Below are positions 20,073 to 63,336 of a stretch of DNA of 64,000 nt, piece after piece. Source of the stretch: an uncultured Bacilli bacterium (GTDB lineage Bacteria > Bacillota_I > Bacilli_A > RF39 > UBA660); assembly GCA_934101865.1 (NCBI GenBank), contig CAKOSA010000002.1:17929-81928 (forward strand), given 5' to 3'. Made by a program: the position numbers and the translations under genes. Position 1 is the first letter of the stretch. The number at the start of each line of letters is the position of its first letter. The notes under the pieces are model-generated. The model was not told where the DNA came from. It was given only the letters and a program-made list of their open reading frames with translations, and searched no databases.

Positions 20073-20915
20073 CTACAAATCCTCCTTAATCCTATCAGCC
20101 TTATAAATATTCATACACAAACTAGCAATCGTCATTGCTCCAACCCCCTTAGGAACAGGCGTAATGTAACTAGCCTTATCCTTGCACTCAGCAAAATTCA
20201 CATCGCCATAAAGCTTACCCTCATACCTATTAATACCAACATCAATAACCACAGCCCCCTCTTTAATCATATCGCCCGTGATAAATTCCCTATGACCAAT
20301 CGCTACCACCAAAATATCGGCCCTTCTCGTATAATCGGCCAAATTCGCCGTCCACGAATGACAAACCGTAACCGTCGCATTCCTATTAAGCATCATATTA
20401 AAAAGAGGCTTCCCAACCAAATCACTTCGGCCGACAATAACTACATTTTTACCCTGCACCTCAATCCCGTACTCATCCAGCATCCTCATAATCCCCGTCG
20501 GCGTACACGGAGCAAGACTATCTTTCCGATGCACGAGCCGCCCCATATTCCTGTCCGTAAGCCCGTCCACATCCTTGCGATAATCGATGTGCCCCAAAAT
20601 CCTGCCAGCATCCATCCCATTAGGTAAAGGCAGTTGGAGCAATATTCCCGTCACCTTCTCGTCCCCATTTAGTTCCTCAATTTTTTCGATAATTTCCCTA
20701 TCGGGGGTATCATCAGCATATTTAATGTGAACAAAATCATAACCAACCCTTTCACACATCTTTTCCTTTTGCCCAATATAAACATTGCTAGCACTATCAT
20801 CACCAACCTGAATAACAACCAGCCTAAGCCTCTTTCCAAGCCCCTTTACCTTCTCCTCATATTCCGTAAGAACTCTCTCTTTAATATCCTTACCGTCCAT
20901 AACCATAACAATCAC
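20073..20915 (-). CDS. folD: Bifunctional methylenetetrahydrofolate dehydrogenase / methenyl-THF cyclohydrolase
   Basis: Motifs: VIQVGDDSASNVYIGQKEK, GILLQLPLP, DVDGL, APCTPTGIMRMLDEYGIEVQGKNVVIVGRSDLVGKP and PVPKGVGAMTIA. The true start is probably an internal Met (MDGKDI...). Confidence 0.9.
   Translation of the reverse strand: MIVMVMDGKDIKERVLTEYEEKVKGLGKRLRLVVIQVGDDSASNVYIGQKEKMCERVGYDFVHIKYADDTPDREIIEKIEELNGDEKVTGILLQLPLPNGMDAGRILGHIDYRKDVDGLTDRNMGRLVHRKDSLAPCTPTGIMRMLDEYGIEVQGKNVVIVGRSDLVGKPLFNMMLNRNATVTVCHSWTANLADYTRRADILVVAIGHREFITGDMIKEGAVVIDVGINRYEGKLYGDVNFAECKDKASYITPVPKGVGAMTIASLCMNIYKADRIKEDL
20696..20708 (-). repeat. Exact copy of 13-mer ACCCCCGATAGGG (inside folD)
   Basis: The plus strand reads CCCTATCGGGGGT. 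It encodes T-P-D-R using the GC-rich codons ACC CCC GAT AGG. Confidence 0.9.
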
Positions 20916-22669
20916 TCCTTTAACTTAGCATCCACATTTTCCCTTTCAAGCTCCCTATAATTAACCTTTCCTACAAGTGTCTTCGGTATAACTTCCCTAA
21001 ACTCATATTCATAAGGAAGTGAAAACTTAGCAAGACACTTCTCACAATGCTCCCTAATACTCCTTTTAACACTATTACTTGCACTATATCCCTCTTTCAA
21101 AACAATATAAGCCTTTGCAACCTGCGTCTTATAAGGATGAGGAATACCAATAACGACCGATGTAGCAACTAACGGATGCTCATTCAAAACCGCCTCAATA
21201 TTACTCGGATACACATTGTACCCCGAAGAAATAATCATCCGTTTAAGCCTCTGCTTAAAATACACAAACCCCTGCTCATCCATCGAGCCAATGTCACCCG
21301 TATGAAGATAAATCCGCCCATCCTTGTGTTTCCGAAGCGTACTCCTCGTTTCCTCTTCATTATCAAGATAACCCATCATCACCGTCGGTCCACTAATACA
21401 AATTTCACCGTCTACATTGCTTGGAACTTCCTGCATCGTGCCCACTTTAACAATCTTAAAAATCATATCCGGAAACGGAATACCAATCGAGTTTTCCCTA
21501 TAAAACCTTCTCGGTGTAAGGCACGCTGCTCCTGTGCACTCCGTGAGCCCATACCCTTCTCTCACCCTAGTTTTAGATCCCCTACTCTCTAAAAAAGCAT
21601 CAACCTCTTTTTTAAGCTTAAGAGAAAGATTATCACCTCCCGATACACAACACGTAACCGAAGACAAATCCCTAATATTACTCTTAATTAAACTCTCAAA
21701 CAAAGTCGGCACTCCCACAATAAAGTTAGGCCTGTACTTCTTAATAAGCTTACCAAACTTCCTATAACTAAAATTAGGAATAAGCACACACTTCATACCA
21801 ATATATAAAGGCGTGTGAATACATACCCCCAAACCAAAACCGTGGAATATAGGCATAATCGATAAAACAGAATCACCCACTTTAGCAGGATCACACATAA
21901 GATGACCTTGCATAGCTAGAGCATTAAAATTCATATCAGTTAAAACAATACCCTTCGGACTGCCCGTCGTGCCTCCACTATAAAGAATTACCGCCTCCTC
22001 ATTAAGATTTCTCTGATAAGGCTTCATATCCCTATCCAAAATACCACTCTTAATAAAGTCTCGCCAAAAAATAGCCTTATCATCCTTCTCAATCTTACTC
22101 TTACGACCCGTAAAAAACCAATAAAGAAGATGATTAGTGTTACTCATATCCACACTAACAGCACTAACAATAACCCTCTCTAAAGAAGTATTCTTCTCAA
22201 TTCTCTTAACCTTATCATAAACAAAATCAATAACAAGCATATACTTACTACCCGTCTTACGAAGATAAAACAGAAGTTCCTTCTCACTAGACAAAGGATG
22301 CACCATATTAGCACTAGCACCAATAAAATTAATAGCATAAAACATAATCACACTACTAGGAGTATTAGGCATACAAATCGTAACCCTGTCCCGAGGCTTA
22401 ACTCCCATTTCAATTAAAGCACTAGCACACTTCTTAATCTTCAAAATAAACTCCCTGTACGTAATCCTTTTACCAAAATACTCAAGAGCATAATAATAAG
22501 GATAATTCTCGGCTGTTCTTTCAATAAGTTCATAAATAGAAACATCAGGATAATCCAAATGCTCAGGAACATCACCATAAAAACTATACCAAGGCCTCTT
22601 CGGGAAAAAGAACCTGTAAGCCCTGCTAATCTTTTTATTTACTTTGTTTAAAATCCACTCTATCATCAA
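20912..22669 (-). CDS. AMP-dependent synthetase/ligase (long-chain acyl-CoA ligase-like)
   Basis: 585 aa. Motifs: the AMP-binding motif YSGGTTGSPKGIVLT, GYGLTE, the TGDIG...G.....R.K region and a terminal LVGKVNYRELE. Confidence 0.8.
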   Translation of the reverse strand: MMIEWILNKVNKKISRAYRFFFPKRPWYSFYGDVPEHLDYPDVSIYELIERTAENYPYYYALEYFGKRITYREFILKIKKCASALIEMGVKPRDRVTICMPNTPSSVIMFYAINFIGASANMVHPLSSEKELLFYLRKTGSKYMLVIDFVYDKVKRIEKNTSLERVIVSAVSVDMSNTNHLLYWFFTGRKSKIEKDDKAIFWRDFIKSGILDRDMKPYQRNLNEEAVILYSGGTTGSPKGIVLTDMNFNALAMQGHLMCDPAKVGDSVLSIMPIFHGFGLGVCIHTPLYIGMKCVLIPNFSYRKFGKLIKKYRPNFIVGVPTLFESLIKSNIRDLSSVTCCVSGGDNLSLKLKKEVDAFLESRGSKTRVREGYGLTECTGAACLTPRRFYRENSIGIPFPDMIFKIVKVGTMQEVPSNVDGEICISGPTVMMGYLDNEEETRSTLRKHKDGRIYLHTGDIGSMDEQGFVYFKQRLKRMIISSGYNVYPSNIEAVLNEHPLVATSVVIGIPHPYKTQVAKAYIVLKEGYSASNSVKRSIREHCEKCLAKFSLPYEYEFREVIPKTLVGKVNYRELERENVDAKLKE

Positions 22670-23495
22670 TTTTTTCCTCTAACATTTCCGGATGGGTAAG
22701 TATATGTTCAAGAAGATTAACCGCTTTTGCAAAATAAAATCCATCCCCAATTCTTTCATCTAATGTAATACCAAAATCACAAACATCCCTAATAACAACC
22801 TCACCATCTATAACAACCGGTTTCTTTGTAATCTTACCAATAGCAATAACCACACCATTAGTACCAAATTCCGATAAATGATGATAAACACAATTACAAC
22901 CAATACTACCAAGATTTGTAACAAGCACGCTTGCGTGATAAATACTATCCCTTGTTAAATCTTCCGGTATCAAATCGTGCCTATCCATAAATTTAAAGCA
23001 CCCAATGACAAAGGCCCTAAGAGGACGGGGAAGTTTACCAATAATATCAATCGCCCCATCCGTGCTACTATCCGTATTCGTTCTAATTCTCTTAACATCC
23101 CTCTTAATCTTTTTACTAATCGTGTCAATCGTATCACTATTATCTACCTTAAATACATTGAGGCACTCCTTAGCATCATCCGTAAAACTCGTCTTAGCCA
23201 CAAATCCCAAACTAATAAATTTCCTCTTATAATAGTTACCATTCATAACAAATTTATTCATTGACGGATAATTATAAAGAACTCTTCCAATCGCATAAGA
23301 AAAAGCGTGAAAATAAGTAATATCCTCATTCTCCTCCTTCTTCTTCTCAATATACTTAACCAATTCCGTAACATCCACGTCCCTCTCAACATAAACCTCG
23401 TTGTCACACCTTTTCGGGAGCAAATGATACATAAACTTATGTACCCCCTCAACTTTGAGCCGCTCACCATCGCGTCTATCGCCAAATTTCTTCAC
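22635..23495 (-). CDS. Stand-alone 2-oxoacid-dehydrogenase E2 / CAT-fold acyltransferase-like protein
   Basis: 286 aa. The C-terminal region is VTNLGSIG...AIGKITKKPVV...ITLDERIGDGFYFAKAVNLLEHIL, which parallels the E2 catalytic-domain D-H-R-x-x-D-G segment but has E where the catalytic H is expected. It overlaps the downstream ligase gene by 35 nt. Confidence 0.5.
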   Translation of the reverse strand: MKKFGDRRDGERLKVEGVHKFMYHLLPKRCDNEVYVERDVDVTELVKYIEKKKEENEDITYFHAFSYAIGRVLYNYPSMNKFVMNGNYYKRKFISLGFVAKTSFTDDAKECLNVFKVDNSDTIDTISKKIKRDVKRIRTNTDSSTDGAIDIIGKLPRPLRAFVIGCFKFMDRHDLIPEDLTRDSIYHASVLVTNLGSIGCNCVYHHLSEFGTNGVVIAIGKITKKPVVIDGEVVIRDVCDFGITLDERIGDGFYFAKAVNLLEHILTHPEMLEEKIDDRVDFKQSK

Positions 23496-62872: not shown

Positions 62873-62943
62873 ACACCAACTTTCTTACTATCTCATTATA
62901 ACATCATAGCCCTAAAAGTGCAAGTATTTTCTTAGGTTTGGCC

Positions 62944-63336
62944 CTATGGGGTAATGCACTTAGCTACACCACTACTATCAGATGTAGTGTACACATTATT
63001 ATCTTTATCCCAATAAACCTGCTCCTTAAACCTATCCCCATTAGCATCTTTCATCTCCTCATCACTTATATAACCATCTGTCTTTAATTCTGTAAGAGTT
63101 ACATAACACTTCCCCTTATAATAATCATTAAGCTTACTCCTATTCTTACTACTAAGATATAACTCTCCGGCACTACCCAAAACCTCTAACTTACCAGCAT
63201 TAATCTTATCCTTACTCCTCTCCATAGAAGAAGTAATACTAGGAATAGCCAGAGATACAATAGCAATAAGAATAACAATAACAACAAGTAACTCAACCAA
63301 AGTAAAACCCCTATTATTAAATCTCTTACTTTTCAT
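62944..63336 (-). CDS. Type IV pilin-like / pseudopilin protein (130 aa)
   Basis: I prefer the ATG at 63336 (MKSKRFNNRGFTLVELLVVIVILIAIVSLAIPS...), which carries the prepilin G|FTLVE motif. Two Cys residues lie in the C-terminal half. The track's longer ORF adds 19 unlikely residues. Confidence 0.8.
   Translation of the reverse strand: MKSKRFNNRGFTLVELLVVIVILIAIVSLAIPSITSSMERSKDKINAGKLEVLGSAGELYLSSKNRSKLNDYYKGKCYVTLTELKTDGYISDEEMKDANGDRFKEQVYWDKDNNVYTTSDSSGVAKCITP

Follow-up and report, generated by a model that had tools for sequence, protein, structure and literature searches.

The 64,000-nucleotide (nt) stretch analyzed here (positions 17,929 to 81,928 of contig CAKOSA010000002.1 from an uncultured Bacilli bacterium; hereinafter designated the window) has a GC content of 28–37%, is 86% coding, and includes genes for LtaS, YfhO, CdsA, RseP, pilin-like proteins and an F1-like ATPase cluster, which suggest that the host belongs to a Bacilli or Mollicutes-related lineage with a cell wall and a low GC content. 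A GC-rich 13-mer, ACCCCCGATAGGG (hereinafter designated the word), recurs across the window, and a first-pass annotation had proposed that it is under selection. The host species, a common one represented by many assembled strains, is found again in Hadza and other ENA and Logan human-gut assemblies, on contigs of up to 1.28 Mb. We compared the same regions from ~25 strains of the species (L117–L140, L149–L150; 90–100% nucleotide identity) and added ~50 kb of same-species DNA beyond the window, comprising an extension past its right end, an alternative context following rseP and a ThrRS-tRNA-fmt-IF2 region. A 5-kb contig with 81% nucleotide identity (L141) represents a near relative, and 78 F1-like ATPase loci whose beta-like subunit is 73–85% identical (~72% nucleotide identity) represent distant relatives, amounting to 1.04 Mb of highly redundant sequence.

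The five exact copies of the word described in the first-pass annotation are all confirmed in position and strand: 20696–20708, 24858–24870, 46950–46962 and 58499–58511 on the minus strand, and 26490–26502 on the plus strand. None occurs in 100 dinucleotide-preserving shuffles of the window. Allowing up to two mismatches yields nine window matches versus 0.37 expected, and scoring with a weight matrix derived from the sites produces 10 window hits of at least 15 bits versus 0.13 in shuffles; the related 10-mer CCCGATAGGG is the top GC-rich 10-mer of the window by repeat count, with eight copies. Besides the exact copies there are five clear variants in the window. The near copies listed earlier at 23575, 33657, 51770 and 62942 are as described, and the one at 53567 is present but lies on the opposite (plus) strand. 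One-base-deletion variants are found at 62942, 39376, 7881 and 11938, variants with one mismatch are about as common as perfect copies, and the weight-matrix scan detects nothing but weak variants in the first 20 kb, where genes for variable surface proteins abound. With six unique sites in the ~50 kb beyond the window, the total is 16 unique sites in ~112 kb (~1 per 7 kb) where ~0 are expected, a count that covers part of the genome in two or three chromosomal regions. The over-representation is therefore real and not due to chance, and the earlier statement that the word is far more frequent than base composition allows holds.

Alignment of 15 sites confines the information to the 13-mer itself, [A/G][C/T][C/T]CCC[G/A]ATAGGG, together with a T at position –5 (14 of 15 sites; p = 2.5e-5) and a C at position +14 (nine of 15), followed by C or A and then A, which gives the consensus form T-N4-[A/G]CCCCC[G/A]ATAGGG-C. 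The alignment shows no conserved flank beyond ~19 bp, and no larger repeat surrounds the sites save a 240-nt duplication flanking a gene for 396 amino acids (aa). The site is asymmetric, its inverted ends being 3 bp long (CCC/GGG), and its only fold is a hairpin with a 3-bp stem (–3.6 kcal/mol) that 38 of 200 shuffled sequences match or surpass. The 3′ sub-word ATAGGG is ~2.3-fold enriched on both strands, with a strand skew no greater than composition predicts.

These features bear on the proposal that the word marks the end or the former position of a small mobile repeat, such as repetitive extragenic palindromic (REP) sequences and bacterial interspersed mosaic elements (BIMEs), miniature inverted-repeat transposable elements (MITEs) or yeast mitochondrial GC clusters, or else that it acts at the RNA level, for instance as the target of a small RNA or as an untranslated-region motif. 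Like those repeats, the word is short and GC-rich and sits in AT-rich spacers, often near gene 3′ ends; most copies agree with transcription in orientation, and one copy lies inside the 240-nt repeat. Unlike them, it has no palindromic unit, no larger consensus and no insertion signature, and its copies in folD and in an ATP-synthase-gamma-like gene, which arose by substitution as shown below, carry neither an indel nor a target duplication. A scan of the window with Rfam 15 gives no match at the gathering score, and the same scan of a further same-species contig (L145) finds only a T-box and four tRNAs, besides a chance match that overlaps a tRNA and stays below the threshold; the motif sites themselves are free of matches. 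Five sites or more fall into the gap that separates a terminator from the following promoter, where they are probably not transcribed, and two or three are antisense to their gene. We thus consider the mobile-repeat or RNA-level reading largely refuted here and highly improbable; a larger repeat unit or a known RNA family is rejected on the same lack of a conserved flank and of an Rfam match.

Several more specific identities were rejected as well. The word is not an intrinsic terminator, since its stem is 3 bp long, its fold is no better than that of shuffles and usually no T run follows. Nor is it the remnant of an att site or the 3′ end of a tRNA (CCCCC|GATAGGG|CCA): none of the nine tRNAs seen ends in this way, and an acceptor stem starting with CCC is implausible. 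It bears a resemblance to the ...TATAGGG of T7-like promoters, recognized by phage-type RNA polymerases, and yet two sites stand directly before terminators, four are intragenic and no such polymerase was seen, so a promoter of this type is dismissed as the principal explanation. A CsoR-type palindromic operator is excluded because the right half is absent and the copies are far too many. A full palindrome of that kind, TACCCCCGATAGGGGGGGTA, was noticed upstream of a gene in a Bacillales metagenome-assembled genome (L110, 2455–2475); this chance match looks like an operator of the CsoR type and has no connection with the word.

Twelve of the 16 sites are intergenic (p = 4e-8). Typically, a gene stop is followed by a hairpin terminator with a T run, a gap of 2–25 nt, the motif and, finally, the promoter of the gene downstream. 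Such an order, with the hairpins checked by folding, is seen at 58499, at 26490, in the second haplotype of 24858 and upstream of an Rce1-like gene, of fmt and of a 242-aa gene. The copy at 58499–58511 lies between the hairpin terminator of a 499-aa gene (–18 kcal/mol) and the promoter of a 530-aa gene (TTGAAT-17-TATTAT), whose ATG is 76 nt away. That at 24858–24870 precedes TTCCCA-17-TATAAT by 21 nt and the ATG of a 196-aa gene by 72 nt. The copy at 26490–26502, one of those with opposite orientation, is located 53 nt past the stop of a 363-aa gene with GIEQG repeats, after the hairpin terminator of that gene and 6 nt before a tandem unit of an IS30-family insertion sequence (IS); it belongs to a strain-variable segment, and other strains read ACCCCCAATAGGG there. 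The variant GCTCCCGATAGGG (23575–23587, minus strand; GCCCCCGATAGGG in most other strains) lies in the intergenic region 13 nt past the stop of a PAP2 gene and 27 nt upstream of the TTGACA-17-TAAAAT promoter of an acyltransferase/AMP-ligase/folD operon. The shortened variant ACCCCATAGGG (62942–62952, minus strand) supplies with its TAG the stop codon of a pilin-like gene and lies 73 nt upstream of cdsA. Two sites, the variant ACCCCCAATAGGG at 51770–51782 (minus strand) and the site at L131:6179, directly precede a terminator; the former is 22 nt past the stop of a 346-aa gene, 8 nt before the hairpin terminator, with a TTGACA-17-TATAAT promoter 63 nt downstream.

This placement invites the view that the word is the operator of a DNA-binding protein acting on transcription units, which would regulate globally or, placed between terminator and promoter, form an oriented roadblock or insulator. 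Nine of the 12 intergenic sites are directly upstream of, and co-oriented with, a promoter-like site, at 54–100 nt from the start codon (72, 76, 80 and 73 nt at four window sites); many lie 2–25 nt past a hairpin terminator; and at three loci strain conservation runs from the motif through the promoter, as expected of the first functional element. The spacing to the promoter does not follow suit. The first-pass annotation had placed several copies 18–27 nt upstream of a –35 hexamer, and gaps of 19 nt (58499), 21 nt (24858) and 27 nt (23575) bear this out, whereas a consensus scan found no –35/–10 pair for 62942 and gaps elsewhere in the species measure 3 nt (by eye) and 63 nt. With gaps ranging from 3 to 63 nt, the position of the word relative to promoters is neither fixed nor in helical phase. 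Moreover, the sites at 51770 and L131:6179 run straight into a terminator without a promoter, four sites are intragenic and thus not confined to regulatory DNA, the start of the following gene is ~600 nt away from the copies in folD and in the gamma-like gene, whose making by several substitutions a promoter-linked role leaves unexplained, the site is asymmetric, and the downstream genes have no evident common theme. We regard an operator as distinctly unlikely.

The four intragenic sites comprise two in the sense and two in the antisense orientation. The exact copies at 20696–20708 in folD and at 46950–46962 in the gamma-like gene are in the sense direction, and both encode T-P-D-R as ACC CCC GAT AGG, in agreement with the first-pass annotation. 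Its description of these codons as rare applies to ACC and CCC only, which are minority codons within their families (12–13%); GAT (84%) and AGG (45%) are common. The further P-D-R that it had noted, written CCT GAT AGA, is present at 59291. The antisense sites are the variant ACTCCCGATAGGG at 33657–33669 (minus strand) in the plus-strand gene yfhO, which is an exact ACCCCCGATAGGG in strains L121–L123, and the variant GTTCCCGATAGGG at 53564–53576 (plus strand, opposite orientation) in a 508-aa gene, which reads ACCCCTGATAGGG in strain L149.

The copies are strongly oriented. The plus strand of the window has a very strong negative GC skew, and the third-codon-position GC skew, calculated on this strand, is –0.5 to –0.84 in minus-strand genes and likewise –0.5 to –0.78 in the plus-strand genes ltaS, yfhO, GT2, gtrA and tmcAL. 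Since the sign is the same in co-directional and head-on genes, the skew reflects replication, with the minus strand as the leading strand, and the five plus-strand genes are therefore head-on. On this assignment, 14 of the 16 unique sites (88%) lie on the G-rich leading strand (p = 0.004). The copy in yfhO and a weak one-base-deletion variant in tmcAL (HIGH_NTase1), GTCCCCG-TAGGG at 39376–39387 (minus strand), are antisense to their genes and keep the leading-strand direction. The orientation of the word thus agrees with the leading strand no less well than with transcription, and the evidence that its polarity follows replication rather than transcription is suggestive rather than conclusive. 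Around the oppositely oriented copy at 26490, the third-position skew is reversed in the adjacent IS30 gene and much weaker in the 363-aa gene than in core genes, so that the flanking DNA may be a recent insertion.

The sites persist in all conspecific strains, which differ at them by single bases, for example G7A, C3T, a lost A8 or a C run that varies from 4 to 6. Fourteen strains retain the folD copy, with GATGGGG in one of them. The 81%-identity relative, by contrast, has neither of the two sites that it allows to be examined: in its folD (FolD 76% identical) the position reads ACT AAA GAA GAG G, with the surrounding codons conserved and the codons in register without an indel, and its counterpart of the 23575 site is the degenerate AGTCC-TGTAGGG. 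Among the 78 loci of the ~72%-identity relatives, no copy is found at up to two mismatches, versus three to four copies in each of two loci that cover this region in the host species, and no other GC-rich word of at least 11 bases is repeated three times. The word is thus conserved at ≥90% nucleotide identity and missing at ~72%. FolD relatives of 92, 86 and 76% identity are followed directly by those of ≤60%.

Comparison with relatives also shows how the copies arose. In the gamma-like gene, the nearest relatives read ACT CCG GAT AAA G (encoding TPDK) or ACT CCC GAT GAA A, and the ACC CCC GAT AGG G found here is three or four substitutions away, including two that are synonymous and introduce codons of 12–13% usage. 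Together with the folD site, this indicates that the word is created in place by point mutation and not by insertion, and the force must act on the DNA word itself. The earlier claim of selection is supported, as selection or molecular drive, because the word is over-represented, is conserved among strains and has been built by substitution within genes.

Molecular drive is the essence of the proposal that the word is a DNA-uptake signal, of the type of the Neisseria DNA uptake sequence (DUS) or the Pasteurellaceae uptake signal sequence (USS): a competence receptor would favor word-bearing DNA, and copies would spread by mutation together with biased uptake and recombination, with no advantage at any one site. 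Like these exact words of 9–12 bases, it is long, exact, over-represented and restricted to one lineage; its coding copies were born by point substitution at tolerated positions in variable protein parts; and single-mismatch variants are about as frequent as perfect copies. It is enriched past gene ends and beside terminators, as are USS pairs in Haemophilus (PMC7811141). DNA that is likely to have been acquired recently, namely the IS30 element and a glycosyltransferase gene cluster on an 11.7-kb locus of 27% GC (L144), contains no copies, and the sampled DNA includes several type-IV-pilin-like genes (N_methyl), one of whose stop codons is a variant of the word, and a gene for a non-specific endonuclease. 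Orientation, however, is a considerable difficulty. Neither orientation predominates appreciably among USS and DUS, as opposed to the 14 of 16 sites in one orientation here. They also form inverted pairs that serve as terminators, whereas the nearest opposite copies of the word are 1.6 kb apart; its density of ~1 per 7 kb is ~5–7 times below theirs; and DUS and USS are family-wide, whereas the word is limited to lineages of ≥90% identity, with no related dialect in relatives. A competence gene set was not seen in the sampled DNA, and sequence-specific uptake is not known in Gram-positive or Mollicutes-related bacteria, the group to which this host belongs in distinction from the hosts of DUS and USS. 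An uptake signal is accordingly an unlikely explanation, although it is the strongest competitor of the reading favored below.

At three loci, strains with unrelated upstream sequences share an identical downstream sequence, and the switch falls precisely on the 5′ boundary of the motif or within it. At 24858, two unrelated upstream flanks (in four and 10 strains) precede an identical motif and downstream region; at the pilin/cdsA site (62942), other strains have a pilin 3′ end without relation to that of the window, attached to ACCCCCCATAGGG or ACCCCCAATAGGG; and at the fmt-upstream site, where a deletion variant of the 39376 type occurs in some strains, two flank types and two motif variants are present in all four combinations. 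In addition, the inverted copies 24858 (minus) and 26490 (plus) enclose a gene cassette of 1.6 kb whose identity between strains (86%) is below that of its flanks (96%), and motif-containing direct repeats flank the 396-aa gene. These junctions could represent a preferred recombination joint, 13-mer microhomology, or conservation that starts at a functional element.

The word could, in the first two cases, be a recombination site or preferred junction, either as the core of a site-specific or guide-RNA-directed recombinase site for cassette swaps or as a GC-rich microhomology for illegitimate joins. Such a role does not explain the substitution-made copies inside essential genes; the 3-bp inverted ends are too short for recombinase arms; and no recombinase is consistently nearby. 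The nearby IS30 and IS110 elements are inserted 20 and ~480 nt off the motif and not within it, by which we also reject the word as their target site. The junctions could simply be a side effect of the shared 13-mer or of conservation beginning at a functional element. We judge this explanation to be very unlikely.

The reading that we tentatively favor, while giving it less than even weight, is that the word is an orientation-dependent signal, specific to this lineage, for a machine that processes DNA, in the manner of Chi or of the FtsK-orienting polar sequences (KOPS) and SpoIIIE recognition sequences (SRS). A sequence-specific protein would read the word as DNA while forming part of a machine that moves in a set direction relative to replication, a recombination-repair helicase-nuclease and a DNA translocase being the candidates. 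The strong polarity, the restriction to one lineage, the persistence among strains, the birth of intragenic copies by substitution and the lack of copies in the IS30 element and in L144 all speak for such a signal. Its function would be set by the density and direction of the copies and not by the neighbors of any one of them, and copies would therefore accumulate wherever 13–19 fixed bases are tolerated, as in terminator-promoter gaps, just past stop codons and in variable stretches of proteins. The protein reader, replication as the polarity reference and the identity of the machine are all three inferred. Among the candidates put forward in the first-pass annotation, a strand-oriented signal fits best and an uptake word is possible; a transcription-factor or UP-type site fits poorly, and a dispersed repeat is unsupported.

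Chi is read by RecBCD or AddAB, and KOPS and SRS by FtsK and SpoIIIE. The word resembles Chi in being over-represented, lineage-specific, mostly on the leading strand and co-oriented with replication, in its spacing (once per 5–10 kb for Chi), in its presence in both genic and intergenic DNA and in being kept by selection on the DNA word and not on what it encodes. It differs in that Chi sequences are G-rich, have 5–8 bases against 13 here (~19 with flanks), are read in single-stranded form by RecC or AddB and are not concentrated in intergenic gaps; furthermore, the sharp homology breaks described above adjoin the 5′ side of the word, where Chi-stimulated exchange would not place them. KOPS and SRS share with the word a strong strand skew (>85% leading, compared with 88% here), a similar spacing and the dependence on the direction of many copies, and there is a loose likeness between ATAGGG, the 3′ half of the word, and the terminal nAGGG of GGGNAGGG and GAGAAGGG. 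Unlike the word, they are G-rich 8-bp sequences bound by the FtsK gamma domain, and ATAGGG alone is not skewed beyond composition.

Several observations weigh against a word of this type. At 13–19 bases with a C5 run on a C-poor strand, it departs from the 5–8 G-rich bases of Chi, KOPS and SRS, and no shorter core was detected, as no sub-word is enriched outside the full sites. The polar words known so far have no strong intergenic preference, in contrast to the preference observed here, which may be explained by the difficulty of fitting a long word into genes. Two sites, 26490 and 53564, have the opposite orientation. Most of the sampled genes face one way, leaving one strong and one weak copy to separate replication from transcription, and the sample is restricted to ~112 kb from two or three regions. 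Finally, no candidate reader protein was identified.

The word is explained by no described family and is unusually long and unusually young. A contig scan (596 Gb) with the 14-mer TACCCCCGATAGGG, which is too short for this purpose, returned at least 116 single chance matches in unrelated genomes, including two AT-rich matches (L010 and L110) that have no relation to the word. A viral collection yielded single chance matches only and no phage enriched in the word, and a literature search for it retrieved unrelated primers only. It is possible, though doubtful, that the word is either a polar signal of the Chi or KOPS type at about twice the known length or the first sequence-specific uptake signal in a Gram-positive-type or Mollicutes-related gut bacterium, a replication-linked polarity being unexplained in the latter case; as part of this alternative, and no more certain, a new strand-oriented 'self' word of 13–19 bp may have evolved within ~10–20% nucleotide divergence from relatives without it.

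Oriented words such as Chi, KOPS and uptake signals show how the machines of repair, segregation and gene exchange read chromosomes. Few are known, all of them from cultured model groups, and their birth is rarely visible. Here it seems to have been caught underway, the word being present at ≥90% identity, degenerate or absent at 81% and absent at ~72%, and a few substitutions having turned proto-sites within genes into copies. If this is correct, word-bearing and word-free lineages coexist in public gut metagenomes, and their comparison should point to the reader protein. In practical terms, the word would mark native as opposed to recently acquired DNA in the host species. It also coincides with sharp junctions beside hypervariable surface-protein and pilin genes.

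Three weak variants lie outside the set of clear sites. That at 39376 in tmcAL is possibly a decayed or nascent site. The weak deletion variant AGCCCCCG-TAGGG at 7879–7891 (plus strand, opposite orientation) is inside a 1947-aa gene and may be a chance match or a decayed site, and GGCTCCC-ATAGGGcca at 11938–11950 (minus strand) is in the sense direction of an amidase gene.

Other features of the region deserve mention. The IS30-family element (1864 bp) next to the 26490 copy is a perfect tandem duplicate (26508–28371 and 28372–30235), and other strains have one copy or none. The GIEQG-repeat genes form a multi-copy family defined by repeats at the C-terminus (window 14842–15867, 25345–26436 and 30382–30765), each copy ending in the same hairpin and differing strongly between strains; all 154 detectable homologs are 80–100% identical, so the family appears to be genus-restricted, and its sole similarity is a sub-threshold one to the Rpn nuclease/transposase family (TIGR01784). 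A specific link between this family and the word is rejected, as one gene is bracketed by inverted copies and the other two paralog loci are not. The third-position skew of IS30, the GIEQG-family genes and relB is opposite or absent, marking them as recent arrivals.

The cluster that includes the gamma-like gene (44066–50632) encodes alpha-like, beta-like and gamma-like ATP-synthase subunits and a 735-aa protein of unknown function; it recalls the extra F1-like ATPase clusters of mycoplasmas, and beta-like homologs of 73–85% identity are common in human-gut assemblies. A FolD homolog of 59% identity is found on a contig (L148) full of SPbeta-type phage genes (YonB, YonD, YonG), which is uninformative on the word; a phage appears to carry folD. 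The pilin-like gene next to cdsA (N_methyl; 62944–63336; L133, L136, L140) has unrelated 3′ parts in different strains, and at least three lone pilin-like genes lie within ~10 kb of cdsA. The direct repeat around the 396-aa gene, which has no known function (~240 nt; L145 2181–2404 and 3700–3960, also in L147), holds a promoter-like box and a motif copy and has no significant predicted RNA structure. A paralogous, strain-variable protein family of ~350–530 aa without Pfam domains (window 51805–54400 and 56831–60061; L131, L142–L147) often has a motif copy directly after its genes. Adjacent to it, a gene-free stretch of 978 nt (60062–61039), which matches no Rfam family, contains internal repeats (60520–60636 and 60839–60955) and strong hairpins at 60426–60453 and 60975–60995.

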